Below, one piece after another: positions 1 to 63,377 of a stretch of DNA of 64,000 nt (within the stretch, counting starts at the first letter, position 1; each line of letters opens with the position of its first letter). The translations under genes and the position numbers were made by a program. The notes beneath the pieces were generated by a model. That model was not told the origin of the DNA. It ran no database searches and saw only the letters and a list, made by a program, of their open reading frames with translations. Location of the stretch: sequence record PQ100635.1; one strand, given 5' to 3'. This DNA is from Escherichia phage PNJ-9.

Positions 1-389
1 AATTCATCCAACATCATTGATTTGATATTTGGACTAAATTTTGTGTTGTCTAAATTTATAGAAACGACTTCTGTATCATCTTCATACACGATAGCATCGG
101 AAACTATTTCAGAGACCGCGTTATCCACTTCATAGTTCGTCATCAAATTTCGATACGTATCGATTAATTCACGGGTTGATTTGAGCCCTGGTTCTTGACT
201 ACCGAACATTCTCTGAAACATAGCATTATATGTTTGCTGTGCTTCATTTTCAGATACTTCGTATTCTTTAGCACCATCGTCTAATTTTGGTGTAGTGATA
301 GATTCTAAATTTTCTTTTTCTTGGTCTTTGTAATCACGTTCGTCCATTTTTGCCCATGGAGCAAACAAACTTAAGATATTAAATTTCAT
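1..389 (-). CDS. 20: portal vertex protein gp20, N-terminal part (gene runs off the window start)
   Basis: Minus-strand ORF with ATG at 389-387; N-terminus [26 protein letters not shown] matches the T4 portal N-terminus as recalled; lies after 18-19 as in T4. Confidence 0.85.
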
Positions 390-417
390 TGTATTCTCCG
401 AATGGGAATTATAGTTA

Positions 418-27160: not shown

Positions 27161-27190
27161 GTTTACATAAGGATGATGGTGTGTTACTAT
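27161..27190 (+). promoter_or_regulatory. T4-type early promoter (GTTTAC -35, TACTAT -10) with embedded inverted repeat
   Basis: GTTTAC at 27161-27166, 18-nt spacer, TACTAT at 27185-27190; inverted repeat AGGATGAT/ATCATCCT flanks the -10. Confidence 0.55.
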
Positions 27191-27224
27191 CATCCTATCA
27201 AATAAACGACCTCAAGGAAATAAA

Positions 27225-27512
27225 ATGAAAACCTATAAAGAATTTATATCACCTGTTGCTAACGTTTCTACTCTGACCGAAGCAACCCTTACTTCCGAAG
27301 TTATTAAAGCAAATAAAGGACGTGAGGGTAAACCAATGATTAGTCTGGTTGACGGCGAAGAAGTAAAAGGTACTGTTTACTTAGGGGATGGATGGTCTGC
27401 TAAGAAAGATGGCGCTACTATTGTTATCTCTCCGGCTGAAGAGACCGCACTGTTTAAAGCTAAGCATATTTCTGTAGCTCAGCTTAAAATTATTGCAAAA
27501 ACTCTTCTGTAA
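27225..27512 (+). CDS. ipI: internal protein I-like capsid-targeted protein
   Basis: 95-aa ORF with N-terminal capsid targeting sequence MKTYKEFIS; sits next to 57B as ipI does in T4. Confidence 0.65.
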   Translation: MKTYKEFISPVANVSTLTEATLTSEVIKANKGREGKPMISLVDGEEVKGTVYLGDGWSAKKDGATIVISPAEETALFKAKHISVAQLKIIAKTLL

Positions 27513-27515
27513 GTA

Positions 27516-27545
27516 GTTTACATGCTGATAGGACTATGTTATAGT
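27516..27545 (+). promoter_or_regulatory. T4-type early promoter with 10-bp inverted repeat
   Basis: GTTTAC 27516-27521, TATAGT 27540-27545; inverted repeat GATAGGACTA/TAGTCCTATC around the -10. Confidence 0.55.
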
Positions 27546-27580
27546 AGTCCTATCAGATCAACAACCAAACGGAAAAACAA

Positions 27581-27846: not shown

Positions 27847-27876
27847 GTTTACATGATGATAGGACTATGTTATAGT
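27847..27876 (+). promoter_or_regulatory. T4-type early promoter (near-duplicate of the 27516 element)
   Basis: GTTTAC 27847-27852, TATAGT 27871-27876, same GATAGGACTATGTTATAGTAGTCCTATCA core. Confidence 0.55.
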
Positions 27877-27906
27877 AGTCCTATCAAAACATGAGAGGAT
27901 AATAAA

Positions 27907-30244: not shown

Positions 30245-30871
30245 ATGTATACTTTTAATGAATTTTTAGCAGAAACGGAAGTAATCACCGAAGCCGGTGT
30301 ACGTATGACAAAAGAGAAATGGCAAGCTGCTTACGATGCTATTTCTGGTACAAAAACTAGTACAGAGTTTTTCAAAAACGTTCAAGCCATGTACGGTATC
30401 GACACTTCCAGCCAAAAAGAATATTACAGAGCTTCTAAAGCATTCAAAGATATTGTTAGTGGTGGTGTTTCTGCTAAATCGGGTTCGCCTAAAGTAAAAC
30501 CTGCTCCTACCATTCCTAAACCTGCGACCCCTAAAGCAGTAGCAAAACCTGAGCCTAAGCCGGAAGTAAAAGCAACTCCTAAAGCTCCTGCTCTTAAGTT
30601 TGATACTTCTAGCCTGGAAAAAAAATATAAACAACTATCTTCGCTTGTTCGTGATATTGAATCCGATACATCTTCACTCGTTCGTGAATTCAATATTCTT
30701 CGTAATGGCCAACATATCAACAACCTTGATACCCCAGACCTTTATCGTCTTTATTTGACTATCGAAGGTTTGAAGTATACTCAACCACTTCACGATGCGA
30801 TTAAAGAAAAACTTCGTCAGGCAGGTCGTTTGGCTGCTGACGCTGCTCAGTATGCAAAAACTCGTAAGTAA
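30245..30871 (+). CDS. late-expressed protein with a diverged capsid-targeting-like N-terminus and Pro/Lys-rich linker
   Basis: 208-aa ORF beginning MYTFNEFLAE (compare MKTYQEFIAE); low-complexity PKVKPAPTIPKPATPKAVAKPEPKPEVKATPKAP segment; bracketed by a late promoter and a hairpin terminator. Confidence 0.6.
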   Translation: MYTFNEFLAETEVITEAGVRMTKEKWQAAYDAISGTKTSTEFFKNVQAMYGIDTSSQKEYYRASKAFKDIVSGGVSAKSGSPKVKPAPTIPKPATPKAVAKPEPKPEVKATPKAPALKFDTSSLEKKYKQLSSLVRDIESDTSSLVREFNILRNGQHINNLDTPDLYRLYLTIEGLKYTQPLHDAIKEKLRQAGRLAADAAQYAKTRK

Positions 30872-30876
30872 AGAAT

Positions 30877-30895
30877 GGGGACTTCGGTCCCCTTT
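30877..30895 (+). terminator. C(UUCG)G hairpin / weak terminator
   Basis: GGGGAC-TTCG-GTCCCC followed by TTT and an overlapping CCCC-ttta-GGGG alternative stem. Confidence 0.5.
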
Positions 30896-30923
30896 AGGGG
30901 GTCTATAACTTACTGAAAAAGTT

Positions 30924-30952
30924 GTTTACTTCTTCCCTAGATGTGTTACTAT
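30924..30952 (+). promoter_or_regulatory. T4-type early promoter
   Basis: GTTTAC 30924-30929, 17-nt spacer, TACTAT 30947-30952, then CCTATTAAAACATGAGGAGAA leader. Confidence 0.55.
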
Positions 30953-31542: not shown

Positions 31543-31770
31543 ATGGTTACAGTTAGTATTGATGTCGTTGATTATGAATACACCGAAGAAGTTATTCGCA
31601 ACCGTCACCCTGAAGTTCGTATCGATTCAGTCCAAGATTCCAAGTTTTGGACAACCGAGCTTAATCTGAGTGGTCCTTATGAAGCTGTTAAGAAGTTCAT
31701 GGTTGAAGAATACTGCGAAGGCATGCACCCCGAGAACGCCGAGTTTTATGTCAATTTGATTAAAAAATAA
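31543..31770 (+). CDS. hypothetical early protein
   Basis: 75-aa acidic ORF after a promoter-like element and SD GAGGAG. Confidence 0.5.
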   Translation: MVTVSIDVVDYEYTEEVIRNRHPEVRIDSVQDSKFWTTELNLSGPYEAVKKFMVEEYCEGMHPENAEFYVNLIKK

Positions 31771-31799
31771 TTTACAAACTCTTGAGAGCAGAGTATAAT
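31771..31799 (+). promoter_or_regulatory. sigma70-like early promoter with 8-bp inverted repeat flanking the -10
   Basis: TTTACA 31771-31776, 17-nt spacer, TATAAT 31794-31799; TGAGAGCA/TGCTCTCA arms; near-identical copy at 63321-63348. Confidence 0.55.
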
Positions 31800-31840
31800 G
31801 CTCTCATTGGATAATAAACCACCAATTGAAAGGTAATAAT

Positions 31841-34577: not shown

Positions 34578-34607
34578 GTTTACAACAAGATAGGGCTATG
34601 TTATAGT
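34578..34607 (+). promoter_or_regulatory. T4-type early promoter
   Basis: GTTTAC 34578-34583, 18-nt spacer, TATAGT 34602-34607; ATAGGGCTA/TAGTCCTAT imperfect inverted repeat. Confidence 0.55.
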
Positions 34608-34635
34608 AGTCCTATCAAATTAAATGGAGTCCACA

Positions 34636-35869: not shown

Positions 35870-35899
35870 GTTTACAAGGTCTGTAGTTGTTGATACTAT
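35870..35899 (+). promoter_or_regulatory. T4-type early promoter
   Basis: GTTTAC 35870-35875, 18-nt spacer, TACTAT 35894-35899; GGTCT/AGACC arms. Confidence 0.55.
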
Positions 35900-35936
35900 A
35901 GACCTATCAAAACAAATGAGTGAATGGAGATACAAA

Positions 35937-36137: not shown

Positions 36138-36195
36138 GTGTACAAACTGATAGGGCTATGTTATAGTAGTCCTATTAAAACATGAGGAGAATATT

Positions 36196-38351: not shown

Positions 38352-38383
38352 AATAAATACCTCCTATAAACGTGGGAGGTATT
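38352..38383 (+). promoter_or_regulatory. late-promoter-like element plus SD-sequestering hairpin upstream of e
   Basis: AATAAATA at 38352-38359 (7/8 of TATAAATA) and 9-bp stem AATACCTCC / GGAGGTATT (38356-38364 with 38375-38383) whose downstream arm is the e SD. Confidence 0.55.
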
Positions 38384-38872: not shown

Positions 38873-39150
38873 AAACATATAGCGAATTTTTATCAGAATC
38901 TATTCTTAACGAAGCTACTGACACATTTGCAACTAAGCTAGGTGCAGCTTTGGTTGAAGCTGAAAGTCTATTAGCACGTATTTCTGAACTTGCTAGTAAG
39001 ATAGATACTCGCAAATTTGAACGTACCAGCGATATCGTTAAGCTTGAAGCCTTGTTGCGTATGTGCGATAAACCGGAAGAAATCGCTAAGAACGGCTCGC
39101 TGATGAAACAACGTCTTGAAAAATATATTTCAGGCGCTTCAGAAAAATAG
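38869..39150 (+). CDS. internal-protein-like capsid-targeted protein
   Basis: 93 aa beginning [10 protein letters not shown] (capsid targeting sequence); ATG overlaps the e stop (ATGA). Confidence 0.6.
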
Positions 39151-39151
39151 T

Positions 39152-39205
39152 GTTTACTTCCTCCAAGGACTTTGATACTATACATTCATCAACTACTTGG
39201 AGGAA
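39152..39205 (+). promoter_or_regulatory. T4-type early promoter with 10-bp inverted repeat sequestering the denV SD
   Basis: GTTTAC 39152-39157, TACTAT 39176-39181; arms TTCCTCCAAG (39158-39167) and CTTGGAGGAA (39196-39205); SD GGAGGA lies in the downstream arm. Confidence 0.55.
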
Positions 39206-39208
39206 ATT

Positions 39209-39622
39209 ATGACCCGTATCAATTTAACACTTGTTTCTGAACTGACCGACCAACATCTTATGGCTGAGTATCGTGAATTACCACGCGTATTTGGTGCAGT
39301 CCGTAAACATGTTCAAAACGGTAAACGTGTAAAGGATTTTAAAATCTCTCCAACATTTATCTTAGGCACAGGTCATGTAACATTCTTTTACGACAAACTC
39401 GAATTTTTACGTTTACGTCAAATCGAGCTAATCGCCGAATGCTTGAAACGTGGTTTCAAAATCAAGGACACGACTGTCCAAGATATTTCCGACATCCCTG
39501 CCGAATTTCGTAATAATTATGTCCCGTCCGAAGCGTCCATTGCGATAAGTCAAGCACGCTTAGATGAAAAAATTGCTCAGCGCCCGACTTGGTACAAATA
39601 CTATGGTAAATCAATTTACTAA
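39209..39622 (+). CDS. denV: endonuclease V (pyrimidine-dimer DNA glycosylase)
   Basis: [34 protein letters not shown]...; near-identical to T4 DenV as recalled; 137 aa from ATG 39209. Confidence 0.95.
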
Positions 39623-40255: not shown

Positions 40256-40368
40256 CAGTTTACTTTCTCCTAGAATTGTGATAGTATATTCATAATTACT
40301 TGGAGTGGTAAATACAGAAATGGACAATTCATAGGTCATTCCATAGCCCCAACCTTAAGAGAAACTAA

Positions 40369-40698
40369 ATGAAAACATATCAAGAGTTTATCACTGAAGT
40401 TACATTATCTGCGGAACAGAAAGCTGCTATCGAAGAAGCTAAAAATCCCAAAGTAACATATAAAGTAAATAGTAAAGGCGTTTTTGATGGCTTGGTTCAA
40501 GACCCTGAATTGAAAAAAGCTCTTTCTAAAACTAATGCGTACTTTGCTCCTAAATTTAACACAGCCGGCGTACTTATTGGATTGGATGTATTCAACTCTA
40601 AAGGTGTTCTATCTAATGCCTTTGGTTATGCCGCTAACAAAATTACCAAAGCCGCATGGGAATCCAATACCAAACAAGCTCAAAAGCCTAGAGTATAA
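40369..40698 (+). CDS. internal-protein-like capsid-targeted protein
   Basis: 109 aa beginning MKTYQEFITEVTLSAEQ. Confidence 0.6.
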   Translation: MKTYQEFITEVTLSAEQKAAIEEAKNPKVTYKVNSKGVFDGLVQDPELKKALSKTNAYFAPKFNTAGVLIGLDVFNSKGVLSNAFGYAANKITKAAWESNTKQAQKPRV

Positions 40699-42545: not shown

Positions 42546-42844
42546 TGGCTCAAATCCTATCAGGCTTTGGAACTCATTATGAAGCATCTCGACGCATAAC
42601 TGAAAGCAATCCTTTTGGCCTTGTTCCGAAGCACAAGAAAATTCAAAGCCTTGATGACTTTGAGAATCGCCTATGGGCCCTCTTTAATGAGTACAAGGCA
42701 TATCTGAAAGAAGACGCTGACGATTGTCTTGAAGAAGATGAGATTGCGTATTACGAACAACGCCTTGAACAGCTCAAGAACTTCCACCAGGTTCGTGACG
42801 AAGTATCTAAAGCAGTTAAAAAGTTAATTCCTTTCAAAGAGTAG
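42545..42844 (+). CDS. hypothetical protein
   Basis: 99 aa from ATG 42545 ([21 protein letters not shown]...). Confidence 0.45.
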
Positions 42845-42893
42845 TTTACTTCTCCTCTAGTTGTGTTACTATAGACCTGTCAACTAGAGGAGA
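42844..42893 (+). promoter_or_regulatory. T4-type early promoter with 13-bp perfect inverted repeat sequestering the regB SD
   Basis: GTTTAC 42844-42849, 17-nt spacer, TACTAT 42867-42872; arms TCTCCTCTAGTTG (42851-42863) and CAACTAGAGGAGA (42881-42893); SD GAGGAG in the downstream arm. Confidence 0.6.
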
Positions 42894-42901
42894 AATCAAA
42901 A

Positions 42902-43360
42902 ATGACTATCAATTCTGACGTTTTTATCCGCCGTAATAAACTCCGTCGAATCTTTGAAACGGAGTTCCGCAAAATAAATGCCGGTATAAAAGATGCTGCA
43001 AAGTCTCTTGGACTACCAGGCTTTCATATCAAGTATTCTCAACATCTCTTAGATCGTGCTATCCAGAGAGAAATAGATGAGAACTACGTTTTTGAATTAT
43101 TTCGTAAAGTAAAAAATCATGTTAAAGAAGTTGCAGAATTTTTATCAATGCCGGCACGTCCAGATGTTGATGAAGATTTTGTCGAAGGTGTCGAATATCG
43201 CCCAGGCCGTTTAGAAATAACTGATGGAAATCTTTGGTTAGGACTTACAGTTTGTCGCGAAAATCCAGCATTCAAAATGAAGACTCTTCAATGCAGAATG
43301 GCTATTATTAACAATAAACGACTACCAGGAAAAGCTTCTAAAGCAGTGATTAAAATCTAG
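42902..43360 (+). CDS. regB: sequence-specific endoribonuclease RegB
   Basis: 152-aa ORF MTINSDVFIRRNKLRRIFETEFRKINAG...; matches T4 RegB as recalled in length and sequence. Confidence 0.8.
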   Translation: MTINSDVFIRRNKLRRIFETEFRKINAGIKDAAKSLGLPGFHIKYSQHLLDRAIQREIDENYVFELFRKVKNHVKEVAEFLSMPARPDVDEDFVEGVEYRPGRLEITDGNLWLGLTVCRENPAFKMKTLQCRMAIINNKRLPGKASKAVIKI

Positions 43361-46429: not shown

Positions 46430-46435
46430 TTTACT

Positions 46436-46464
46436 AGCCCCTTCCTTATGGTTGGGGCTTTTTG
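46436..46464 (+). terminator. rho-independent terminator after rI
   Basis: AGCCCC-ttccttatggtt-GGGGCT followed by TTTTT. Confidence 0.65.
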
Positions 46465-46474
46465 GCATCTATCA

Positions 46475-46526
46475 GTTTACTTCTCCTCAGGTTGTGTTAT
46501 AGTAGTCCTTACTTACTAGAGGAGAA
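46475..46526 (+). promoter_or_regulatory. T4-type early promoter with SD-containing inverted repeat
   Basis: GTTTAC 46475-46480, TATAGT 46498-46503; arms TTCTCCTC (46481-46488) and GAGGAGAA (46519-46526). Confidence 0.5.
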
Positions 46527-46530
46527 CGTT

Positions 46531-46710
46531 ATGTCACGTAAAGAAAAAATTTCTAAGTTAATGTTTTTGATTGAAGAGTACGCTAATGCGGTATCTGATT
46601 GGGAAAATGCTCATGGTTGCGAAGATGGAGACATCGACATTAACAGAGCTATGAAAAAGATGGCCGAAGCCCACTCCGAATTGCAAATGTATGTTAACGA
46701 GATTATGTGA
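46531..46710 (+). CDS. hypothetical small protein
   Basis: 59 aa from ATG 46531 (MSRKEKISKLMF...); the ORF track's upstream extension runs through the promoter and is rejected. Confidence 0.4.
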   Translation: MSRKEKISKLMFLIEEYANAVSDWENAHGCEDGDIDINRAMKKMAEAHSELQMYVNEIM

Positions 46711-46927: not shown

Positions 46928-47091
46928 TTTACATCTTGGTAGGACTATGTTATAGTAGTCCTATCAAAACAAACGGAGAACAAAATGAAACTTTTGCTTA
47001 TCGCTTATGTTGTAGTACAATACAATTATCCGATGTTTACTTATAACATGGTAAACGGCATAGTGAATCTTATTGAAACGAGTATGGTAAA

Positions 47092-49303: not shown

Positions 49304-49573
49304 ATGAAAAAATTAGTAATTGGTTTATTCGCAGTAATGATTGCGTTCTCTGTTGGTGCAGCCAGCGGTAGTGCAGGAGCTGGTGGTAACCAAACTTCTG
49401 GGCCTTCTAATGGTTCGGTAAATGCATCACATTCTCAGGGTATTGAGAACATTAAATCAAGCTATATTAATAGCACGGCCGGACAAGCAACTGAAGCATG
49501 GTCAAAGGGACGAGTAGTTACTCGCTCCGTATTCTGTGATATGCCTAATTATGTTGCTAAGTGCGATAAGTAA
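49304..49573 (+). CDS. small secreted protein
   Basis: 89-aa ORF with signal peptide MKKLVIGLFAVMIAFSVGAASG and a Gly/Ser/Asn-rich mature region; late promoter upstream, hairpin downstream. Confidence 0.5.
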   Translation: MKKLVIGLFAVMIAFSVGAASGSAGAGGNQTSGPSNGSVNASHSQGIENIKSSYINSTAGQATEAWSKGRVVTRSVFCDMPNYVAKCDK

Positions 49574-49578
49574 ATGTG

Positions 49579-49597
49579 GGGACCTTCGGGTCCCTTT
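49579..49597 (+). terminator. C(UUCG)G hairpin / weak terminator
   Basis: GGGACC-TTCG-GGTCCC followed by TTT; near-copy of the 30877 element including the CCCTTTAGGGGG alternative stem. Confidence 0.5.
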
Positions 49598-49624
49598 AGG
49601 GGGTTAAAATATTTTTAAAAAGTA

Positions 49625-49653
49625 GTGTACATGCTTTTAGGATATGTTATTAT
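49625..49653 (+). promoter_or_regulatory. T4-type early promoter
   Basis: GTGTAC 49625-49630, 17-nt spacer, TATTAT 49648-49653, then TAGACCTATCAAAAC leader. Confidence 0.45.
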
Positions 49654-50810: not shown

Positions 50811-51098
50811 ATGGATTTTATGCAAAAAATTAAAGCCGCAGTAGAACTCTATGCTCATCGTATGGTTAGTTCTACGATGCAATATAGCGAGGAGGTTCGC
50901 CAGGACTCTTCCTTGAAAGGAAAAACTAAAGCCTTAATTACCTTAGACCGTCTACAAAAGAATGCCCTAGAGTTGTTCCAGTACGACAAGGATGCATATA
51001 AGAAAGAACAGGAAGAGAAACTTAAATCCGAAAAATTACAGAAAATTCCGAAGTCGGTTTGGTTCAGTGGAAAAAATACCGAAAAAAGTTTCTTTTAG
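50811..51098 (+). CDS. hypothetical coiled-coil protein
   Basis: 95-aa ORF, Lys/Glu-rich helix. Confidence 0.45.
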   Translation: MDFMQKIKAAVELYAHRMVSSTMQYSEEVRQDSSLKGKTKALITLDRLQKNALELFQYDKDAYKKEQEEKLKSEKLQKIPKSVWFSGKNTEKSFF

Positions 51099-51100
51099 TT

Positions 51101-51129
51101 GTTTACAAGGTCTATGGTTGTGTTATTAT
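51101..51129 (+). promoter_or_regulatory. T4-type early promoter
   Basis: GTTTAC 51101-51106, 17-nt spacer, TATTAT 51124-51129; GGTCTA/TAGACC arms. Confidence 0.5.
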
Positions 51130-51156
51130 AGACCTATCAACTACTGGAGGTAAAAC

Positions 51157-61797: not shown

Positions 61798-61938
61798 TCT
61801 CATTTCTAATATAATCCATTGGAATCTTCACTTCACTATCTCCTTGTGCCCCTCTCAAATCGAAAATATTTTCATAAAACAGTTTACATCCTCAATAGAT
61901 GTGTTAAGATTAAACCATCTACTATAGAGGAAAATAAA

Positions 61939-63006: not shown

Positions 63007-63071
63007 TAATATACAACGATAGGAAGACGAATGTTATTATCTTCCTATCGTCTTAAAATGAGGAAAATATC

Positions 63072-63311
63072 ATGGCCCAAGAATTAGATTTTATCAAATT
63101 CAAAAAACACCTCGACGTTAAAATTGGGGATTCAATTGTTAGGATTGAGTATGACATTTTAACAGATGCTATTACTGTTAGTTGTGATGGAAATAGTTTC
63201 AGCTTCGATACAACCGAAAATAAATACCCAATCTATAAAGGCATCTTTGATATGGGTGTTGATATTACTCCACGTGATACAAATTACTTACTTTTCATGC
63301 TTAAAAAATAG
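63072..63311 (+). CDS. hypothetical protein
   Basis: 79-aa ORF preceded by a 12-bp perfect inverted repeat (63016-63051) and SD GAGGAA. Confidence 0.45.
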   Translation: MAQELDFIKFKKHLDVKIGDSIVRIEYDILTDAITVSCDGNSFSFDTTENKYPIYKGIFDMGVDITPRDTNYLLFMLKK

Positions 63312-63377
63312 TATATAAACTCTTGAGAGCAGAGTATAATTCTCTCATTGGATAATAAAATAACCGAGGAAAATAAT

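Follow-up and report, generated by a model that had tools for sequence, protein, structure and literature searches.

RNA hairpins that close over a ribosome-binding site and contain an internal promoter are known from bacteriophage T4, in which they have been described for e, soc, 49, I-TevI, segB and mobE. The known cases were reviewed in 2010 as being exclusively late genes (PMC2988022), and the e hairpin cuts translation ~100-fold (PMC3014915). This report concerns hairpins of related design at the early promoters of regB and denV in Escherichia phage PNJ-9 (PQ100635.1), of which a stretch of 64,000 nucleotides was analysed (the window). An initial annotation had noted inverted repeats around early promoters, with the Shine-Dalgarno sequence (SD) of the next gene in the downstream arm, and had pointed to T4 late genes such as e as the precedent, in agreement with the literature. 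In T4 e, soc, 49, I-TevI and segB, the SD and/or the AUG lies in a stable helix on long transcripts, and transcripts from the gene's own promoter lack the 5' arm. At regB and denV the SD likewise lies in a stable helix on upstream transcripts, and a promoter placed to start transcripts inside the hairpin, without the 5' arm, could be recognised at the level of sequence. The e class uses an internal gp55 late promoter (TATAAATA) and its translation is delayed until late, whereas the promoters in the window are of the sigma-70 early type (GTTTAC-N17/18-TAnnnT) with the anti-SD in the spacer, and the expected effect would be reversed, with translation in the first minutes only. No late promoter of the TATAAATA type was found in the regB and denV loops. 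Because the promoters are early-type and the genes early (in T4, the regB promoter is a typical early promoter and both genes are early), the two loci are a variant and not members of the late-gene set. An SD-hiding hairpin at a sigma-70-type early promoter would thus be a variant of the T4 late-gene design, apparently conserved for early genes across many phage genera.

Three further systems are close to these loci. PeSL (promoter-early stem-loop) cassettes are known from RB49/phi1, T4/PST and KVP40/nt-1; their stems either fit between the -35 and -10 elements or overlap the latter (Arbiol 2010; Comeau 2014). The window shares with them a strong early promoter of sigma-70-like type whose upstream region is AT-rich, a stem-loop at -35/-10 or over -10 followed by SD and ATG, and the repetition of the motif in cassettes through variable early regions; the T4/PST stems (AGNA-loop-TCNT) match an AGGACT..AGTCCT family in the window. 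In these papers the stem-loop is interpreted as terminating or attenuating transcription and as a substrate for recombination, and the SD is shown apart from it, further downstream; the text consulted mentions neither a 3' arm that is the SD nor discrimination between transcripts at the level of translation. In E. coli, CT-rich insulator motifs of sigma-54 promoters also place a promoter-internal anti-SD against a downstream SD and silence read-through translation; those motifs are 3-5 nt long, bacterial and found by synthetic library (Levy et al., bioRxiv 10.1101/086108), whereas the helices described here are of 10-15 bp, belong to sigma-70-type phage promoters and show lineage-specific covariation. 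Finally, regB has been described as needing tight control, including cleavage by RegB of its own SD. This autoregulation shares with the hairpin the SD concerned (GGAG) and the end of limiting RegB synthesis, but it is a nucleolytic cut of the promoter's own transcript, whereas the hairpin would act on other transcripts and without a protein. Literature searches returned neither a genome-wide set of T4 start sites nor a description of SD-sequestering hairpins at early promoters. A 1986 abstract by Valerie and colleagues reportedly mentions potential stem-loops before T4 ipIII, ipII, denV and orf61.9 (later regB); if so, the bare T4 observation is old.

Anatomy and folding of the regB and denV hairpins

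At regB, perfect 13-bp arms (TCTCCTCTAGTTG, 42851-42863; CAACTAGAGGAGA, 42881-42893), extended to 14 bp by the pair 42850/42894, surround the -10 element, with the SD GAGGAG in the downstream arm. The coordinates in the initial annotation match exactly, and the same layout with 10-bp arms (39158-39205) was found just as described at denV (Table 1). Directly upstream of regB lies a vs.3 ortholog (tblastn against T4), the stop codon of which (TAG, 42842-42844) shares the first base of the regB -35 element, and the stop codon of an internal-protein gene (TAG, 39148-39150) precedes the denV promoter. From the spacing, regB transcription is predicted to start at G42879, 7 nt past the -10 element and 2 nt before the 3' arm, and the predicted denV start lies 8 nt before the 3' arm; given the predicted start, the regB 5' arm occurs only on transcripts begun upstream of it. 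Both promoters were missed by a generic sigma-70 scan, in which GTTTAC/TACTAT reaches 8/12, below threshold, and the hit count equals the shuffled expectation; promoters were therefore sought with the T4-early pattern in its place.

Folded alone, the regB hairpin has an energy of -20.7 kcal/mol (z = -5.1) and the denV hairpin -16.9 kcal/mol (z = -5.1), with none of 200 shuffled sequences as good in either case; the corresponding long RNAs fold at -23.1 (z = -3.6) and -17.8 kcal/mol (z = -2.7). On read-through RNA with 60 to 400 nt of upstream context, the pairing probability of SD and spacer arm is ~1.0 for both genes, whereas RNA starting ~7 nt after the -10 element is essentially unstructured (0 to -2 kcal/mol, positive z-scores; 0 to -0.3 kcal/mol for the short counterparts of the two long RNAs). 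When the spacers of 22 early promoters were permuted against the SD regions, those of regB and denV came first of 22 with their own SD regions in both directions. As an internal reference, the lysozyme (e) ortholog of the window keeps the classic T4 SD-hiding hairpin, at -15.3 kcal/mol, so the regB and denV hairpins are at least as stable as a design known to cut translation ~100-fold. The e ortholog hairpin carries a late-promoter-like TATAAA in its 5' arm and loop. The proposal in the initial annotation that read-through RNA folds and hides the SD while own transcripts leave it free fits all computations at regB and denV; it does not extend to three of the six sites cited for it, at which the SD is not involved.

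Conservation of the pairing among orthologs and in T4

A set of 43 regB loci from viral contigs was reduced to 14 distinct leader types, 10 of which have a strong spacer-SD helix (-15.7 kcal/mol or stronger), each with its own stem sequence (examples in Table 1). In an alignment-free test, the mean duplex energy was -15.8 kcal/mol for cognate and -9.8 kcal/mol for non-cognate combinations (permutation p < 1e-5). When the leaders were aligned with anchors solely on the SD and anti-SD cores, from lineages that are not independent, both sides had changed at 11 of the 14 stem pairs, giving 39 cells against 14.3 in shuffles (0/500), and the covariation score was 0.371 against 0.06-0.10 with slid partners. 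MAFFT followed by RNAalifold found no structure in the natural regB leaders, as the alignment had put their 3' arms out of register. The lineages match phages of Salmonella (STML-198, Melville), Enterobacter (CIP9), Escherichia (JS10, IME281), Serratia (CHI14), Citrobacter (CF1) and Klebsiella (Mineola), and the hairpin is absent from the most distant regB relatives (~40% identity). By these comparisons, the regB pairing has been kept by compensatory change across many phage lineages. Chance was considered as the source of the regB and denV hairpins and was ruled out by the z-scores of about -5, the rank of 1/22 and the covariation.

The denV arms are wholly different in the window (TTCCTCCAAG / CTTGGAGGAA) and in T4 (TCTCCTGTAG / CTACAGGAGA), and other lineages have CTCCGTTTG / CAAACGGAG or TCTCCTGTG / CACAGGAGA. 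In a second group of denV orthologs, it is the -10/discriminator segment and not the spacer that pairs with SD and AUG, e.g. TATGATGTCTTCC ... GGAGGACATCATG. This segment also lies upstream of the predicted start and would be absent from the promoter's own RNA. Two constructions therefore reach the same outcome, an SD closed on long RNA and open on the gene's own RNA, and this is the strongest argument that access to the SD is selected. At four other denV loci (L087, L089, L093 and L095; phage contigs of 345-378 kb), a strong terminator hairpin overlaps the TTGAC -35 element of a consensus promoter (AAAAGGGTTGACTTCGGTCAGCCCTTTTT..TATAAT), an element that by its sequence is classed as a promoter-terminator composite in jumbo phages.

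For comparison, the T4 genome was put together from four annotated stretches, with automatic gene calls for the sequestration test. The layout was found at the T4 early promoters of regB, denV, motB.2, nrdC.8, alc, alt.-3, 30.8 and ndd.4 (-18 to -26 kcal/mol) and, in weaker form, at e.8 and mobD.5; 5' ends from the T4 denV and mobD.5 promoters have been detected in vivo, those of denV by primer extension (PMC1702504). An SD was counted as sequestered when its probability of being unpaired was below 0.2 and as promoter-proximal when it lay <= 50 nt from an early promoter; by these measures, 12 of 28 T4 SDs near an early promoter are sequestered against 19 of 158 elsewhere (Fisher p = 3e-4). In the T4 record NC_000866, ndd.4 is annotated to start at 166764, within the SD-like GGAGG of the hairpin, and it is an ATG 15 nt downstream (166749) that this SD precedes; the annotated start may be wrong.

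These comparisons bear on the possibility that the elements are ordinary PeSL cassettes, in which the stem-loop attenuates or terminates upstream transcription, the cassette serves as a recombination site and complementarity to the SD is incidental to CT-rich spacers and GAGG-rich SDs. One RB49 PeSL stem-loop lowered downstream lacZ about as much as rrnB T1. The early promoter cassettes of the window form repeat families (D1-D6), most of its promoter hairpins do not involve the SD, and CT-rich spacers pair moderately with non-cognate SDs. On the other hand, neither the regB nor the denV hairpin is flagged as terminator-like or followed by a T-run, the sequence after it being AAATCAAAAATG and ATTATG, respectively; the stems run 6-9 bp past the SD, with which they covary; among denV orthologs, either of two promoter segments pairs with the SD; and promoter-proximal SDs are preferentially sequestered in T4. 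An origin as PeSL cassettes alone is therefore rated unlikely for regB and denV, although attenuation of the PeSL kind and control of the SD are not mutually exclusive. An intrinsic (Rho-independent) terminator was rejected at both genes, at which a GC-rich hairpin followed by a U run is not found, and a search of 26-64 kb against Rfam 15 at gathering score matched just two tRNAs and no family at the hairpins.

Action at the level of DNA was also considered, with the repeat as a cruciform or dimeric protein operator over the promoter, for instance in early promoter shut-off. The repeats are centred on the -10 element, the mechanism of T4 early promoter shut-off is incompletely understood, and the regB and denV stems of the window are perfectly Watson-Crick paired, so that these two stems alone cannot separate action of DNA from that of RNA. 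However, stem sequences vary among promoters and lineages with complementarity kept, which argues against one sequence-specific protein, and the 3' arm tracks the SD, an RNA signal. Counted over 58 hairpins, G.U pairs number 57 and A.C single mismatches 7, in a set for which selection by minimum free energy favours G.U, and for the T4 stems the sense strand is the more stable by 5-9.5 kcal/mol; the overall difference in folding energy between the strands is not significant (p = 0.125). The excess of G.U and the strand asymmetry in T4 favour sense RNA and, given the energy test and the selection, are counted as supporting evidence only. A DNA-level role is regarded as highly improbable.

Proposed control of translation and its range

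The reading preferred here, to which we assign a probability of about 60%, is that at regB and denV, and more weakly at the genes starting at 46531 and 61939, a sigma-70-type T4 early promoter inside an RNA hairpin limits translation to the promoter's own transcripts. The 5' arm would be an anti-SD stretch in the promoter spacer, with the -10 element in the loop and the gene's SD in the 3' arm. Polymerase at the embedded promoter would start ~7 nt after the -10 element, at the foot of the 3' arm, giving an mRNA without the 5' arm and with an open ribosome site, whereas transcripts from upstream promoters would carry both arms, fold during synthesis and enclose the SD in a -17 to -21 kcal/mol helix. 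Translation of regB and denV would thereby be tied to their own promoters. T4 early promoters go silent 2-3 min post infection, with read-through and middle-mode transcription going on, so synthesis would be confined to the immediate-early burst. The anatomy, thermodynamics and evolutionary covariation of the hairpins are shown here; where transcription starts in PNJ-9, whether and how much read-through occurs and how translation responds are inferred.

A related possibility is that the same stem serves to protect the RNA, with translation loss secondary: the hairpin would hide GGAG on polycistronic read-through RNA and so prevent the cut by RegB and downstream decay. Early SDs are cut by RegB at GGAG, and structure in the RNA readily inhibits the enzyme, 16 structured T4 GGAG sites being resistant; on read-through RNA the hairpin should thus shield the GGAG of the SD from it as well. 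Most SD-type arms hold GGAG, and the T4 denV SD and mobD.5 transcript resist RegB in vivo (PMC1702504). Durand et al., however, traced denV resistance to sequence 3' of GGAG, and with a grafted A-rich tail the site became cleavable in vivo (PMC1702504), so it was accessible on at least the transcripts assayed. Moreover, some arms have GAGG or GGAU and not GGAG, and cleavage within the SD of the regB transcript itself is efficient. Protection as the main purpose is considered distinctly unlikely, and shielding of GGAG on long RNA would more probably be a by-product.

The upstream stop codons raise the question of translational coupling, in which the SD would stay closed until the stem is melted by a ribosome finishing the upstream gene (the vs.3 ortholog for regB, an internal-protein gene for denV), and read-through RNA would yield the protein only in step with that of the upstream neighbour. 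In both cases 5-7 nt separate the stop from the 5' arm, regB orthologs repeatedly have a stop 0-4 nt ahead of the -35 element, and the anti-SD sits at the stem base, the first part that a terminating ribosome would reach. With the ribosomal helicase near +11 and the footprint edge near +15 from the P site, however, a ribosome at the stop reaches only the lowest 2-4 of 14 pairs, and ~10 bp remain paired, those of GGA in the SD among them. The gene upstream of 46531 ends ~50 nt away, behind a terminator-like hairpin, and T4 gene e, the geometry of which is comparable, stays silent when the RNA is long. Given how few pairs the ribosome would open, coupling is rated a minor and improbable rival.

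Several observations weigh against promoter-tied translation at these sites or narrow its range. The terminating ribosome just described could open the base of the stem, and the anchored alignment, the relatedness of the lineages and the strand energy test limit the comparative evidence. A scan for T4-type early promoters combined with folding covered 25 promoter-gene pairs (+ strand, 27-64 kb). The SD pairs with the spacer at ~4 of them (regB, denV, 46531 and 61939), ~10 have a hairpin that does not touch the SD and the remainder have neither; with both classes taken together, a stem-loop lies within or overlaps the promoter in 14 to 18 of 25. The frequency of hairpins without SD involvement means that selection for a hairpin over the -10 element may be more general than control of the SD. 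The stem at 46531 is no better than shuffled sequences, and chance was not rejected there. Across the window, the count of strong cognate spacer-SD pairs is not significant (p = 0.24, permutation, 22 promoters), because CT-rich spacers pair with any GAGG, and neither is sequestration of promoter-proximal SDs (8/20 against 14/56 of the others, Fisher p = 0.16). At nrdC.8 (start 53885 in T4), the T4 promoter has an SD-type hairpin of -24 kcal/mol and the promoter in the window (51088-51149) one of the other type, so the two classes can replace each other at one site. An outer SD stem at the window nrdC.8 ortholog was seen in an 86-nt fold, proved unstable in larger contexts and was not counted. 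The claim that the layout is applied systematically to early promoters was accordingly not borne out. The inverted-repeat observation itself is real and beyond chance at regB and denV and marginal at 46531 and 61939, so that it is partly confirmed. Its interpretation is partly supported, as a prediction that comparative evidence backs well at regB, denV and their T4 counterparts but that is not systematic.

A wider version of the idea, that translation private to a promoter is a general organising rule of T4-like immediate-early regions, is put forward tentatively and is doubtful at present. Under it, about 1/4 to 2/5 of promoter-proximal cistrons would be translatable only from their own promoters, owing to an anti-SD located either within the spacer or within the -10/discriminator segment, with regB, denV, alc, motB.2, nrdC.8, 30.8, alt.-3 and ndd.4 as candidates in T4. 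Strong promoters recur every 1-2 kb in the early regions of T4; most early genes therefore receive read-through in addition to transcription from their own promoter, and it is poorly understood how individual early genes are scheduled separately under such read-through. An anti-SD embedded in the promoter would give each gene translational insulation without a protein factor, and it would explain the short burst of the nuclease RegB despite polymerase still crossing regB. If the rule held, potentially harmful early proteins would be limited to the first 2-3 minutes, and read-through GGAG would be out of the reach of RegB, so that long transcripts would survive to express distal genes. Some published PeSL stem-loops would also gain a concrete function other than termination or recombination. 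The design takes ~50 nt, with the -10 element in the loop and the -35 element outside the stem; promoter and stem can therefore be mutated independently, which makes the design easy to test and a potential synthetic insulator part.

Other promoters and genes of the window

The window belongs to a T4-like coliphage (Mosigvirus, Tevenvirinae); the 2 kb around the regB site are 98-99% identical to coliphages including PNJ-6, HX01 and O157 typing phage 3 (annotated genus Mosigvirus), and early transcription runs along the + strand of the window. Gene identities, listed by start codon in Table 1, come from local tblastn against T4.

Table 1. Promoters, hairpins, and genes in the window, and stems of orthologous leaders (arms given 5' / 3')
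Feature	Position	Strand	Sequence or description	Basis
regB promoter, -35	42844-42849	+	GTTTAC	T4-type early promoter pattern
regB promoter, -10	42867-42872	+	TACTAT, in 17-nt loop	17-nt spacer from -35
regB hairpin, 5' arm	42850-42863	+	TTCTCCTCTAGTTG; holds anti-SD CTCCTC; in promoter spacer	inverted repeat
regB hairpin, 3' arm	42881-42894	+	CAACTAGAGGAGAA; holds SD GAGGAG (42887-42892)	inverted repeat
regB coding sequence	42902-43360	+	152 amino acids; 76% identical to T4 RegB	sequence comparison
denV promoter	39152-39181	+	GTTTAC 39152-39157, 18-nt spacer, TACTAT 39176-39181	T4-type early promoter pattern
denV hairpin, 5' arm	39158-39167	+	TTCCTCCAAG; in promoter spacer	inverted repeat
denV hairpin, 3' arm	39196-39205	+	CTTGGAGGAA, the SD; ATG at 39209	inverted repeat
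46531-gene (59 amino acids) promoter and hairpin	46475-46526	+	GTTTAC 46475-46480, TATAGT 46498-46503; 8-bp arms TTCTCCTC 46481-46488 / GAGGAGAA 46519-46526	
55.6-ortholog promoter and hairpin	61882-61930	+	GTTTAC 61882-61887, TAAGAT 61905-61910; interrupted stem; ATG 61939	
ipI promoter hairpin	27171-27197	+	3' arm abuts and overlaps -10; SD ~27215 free; outside SD mechanism	
27581-gene hairpin	27524-27555	+	CTGATAGGACT / AGTCCTATCAG around -10 TATAGT; SD free; repeat families D2, D5	
63072-gene hairpin	63017-63051	+	12 bp, ACGATAGGAAGA / TCTTCCTATCGT around TATTAT; SD ~63061 free; poor -35 (TACAAC)	
Second-kind hairpins	27524-27555, 27855-27886, 34589-34617, 36148-36177, 46937-46966, 27171-27197, 31787-31810, 35877-35905, 63017-63051	+	SD not involved	
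Lysozyme (e) ortholog hairpin	38356-38383	+	AAUACCUCCUAU / GUGGGAGGUAUU, hiding SD; ATG 38384	internal reference
ipI	start 27225	+		tblastn vs T4
e.6	start 31841	+		tblastn vs T4
denV	start 39209	+		tblastn vs T4
ipII	start 39953	+		tblastn vs T4
regB	start 42902	+		tblastn vs T4
rI.1	start 45902	+		tblastn vs T4
mobD.2	start 46985	+		tblastn vs T4
nrdC.8	start 51157	+		tblastn vs T4
55.6	start 61939	+		tblastn vs T4
regB stem, window			TTCTCCTCTAGTTG / CAACTAGAGGAGAA	
regB stem, T4 type			TTTTCCTCTTGACTG / CAGTTAAGAGGAGAA	
regB stem, L031			TTTCTCCTCTTTATG / CATAAAGAGGAGAAA	
regB stem, L053			TCTCCTGTAAGTTG / CACTTACAGGAGA	
regB stem, L033			ATCTCCTTTTAGT / ACTAAAAGGAGAT	
regB stem, L047			ATCCTCATTTG.TTGTG / CACAAACAAATGAGGAT	
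Second denV architecture (L069, L075, L076, L084-L086, L088, L090, L091, L097, L098)	upstream ~330-403			

The 8-bp arms claimed for the 46531 gene are present in the layout described, and the fold is no better than chance: the hairpin alone has -12.6 kcal/mol (z = -1.3, 19/200 shuffles as good), and a second fold gave z = -0.15. The cassette at 46475 is 83% like the regB cassette over 36 nt (repeat family D6); as a paralogous copy of the latter, it is not independent evidence. The terminator-like hairpin, with a T-run, lies at 46435-46465, just before this promoter. The site at 61882, absent from the initial annotation, has a stem in which CCTC (61890-61893) and TAGATG (61896-61901) pair with CATCTA (61916-61921) and GAGG (61927-61930), with -9.3 kcal/mol and z = -2.3 (5/200 shuffles). 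At ipI, 27581 and 63072, which had been listed as sharing the layout, the repeats do bracket or overlap the -10 element, yet the SD is unpaired, 15-25 nt past the 3' arm.

These three sites fall within the second kind of hairpin seen at ~10 promoters, in which the 5' arm lies in the spacer, the -10 element in the loop and the 3' arm, AGTCCTATC or AGACCTAT, immediately past the -10 element and over the predicted start. Five of them are copies of one cassette (GATAGGACTATGTTATAGTAGTCCTATC), and several have G.U pairs in the sense strand; the family GATAGGACT..TATAGT..AGTCCTATC fits the published PeSL description. Two 62-nt promoter cassettes (31757-31818 and 63298-63359) are 92% identical, with an internal TGAGAGC/GCTCTCA hairpin; in the second copy GTATAT replaces the -35 element, and it starts with TGCTTAA, resembling a MotA box. 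In the promoter at 40258-40287, the spacer (TTTCTCCTAG) pairs with ACTTGGAGTGG ~55 nt upstream of the real start at 40369, and 40258-40320 looks like a decayed denV-type cassette left by rearrangement. This putative relic and the unlike hairpin classes at the orthologous nrdC.8 sites are only indirect hints at the recombination proposed for PeSL cassettes.

A GC-rich terminator hairpin with a UUCG tetraloop (GGGGACTTCGGTCCCC) and an early promoter within ~40 nt of it occurs twice, at 30865-30952 and 49567-49653 (71% identical). Six small genes (ATGs at 27225, 27581, 38869, 39629, 39953 and 40369) open with an MKTY(K/Q)EFI leader, as in T4 internal proteins, and the repeat families D4, D7 and D8 span their start regions.

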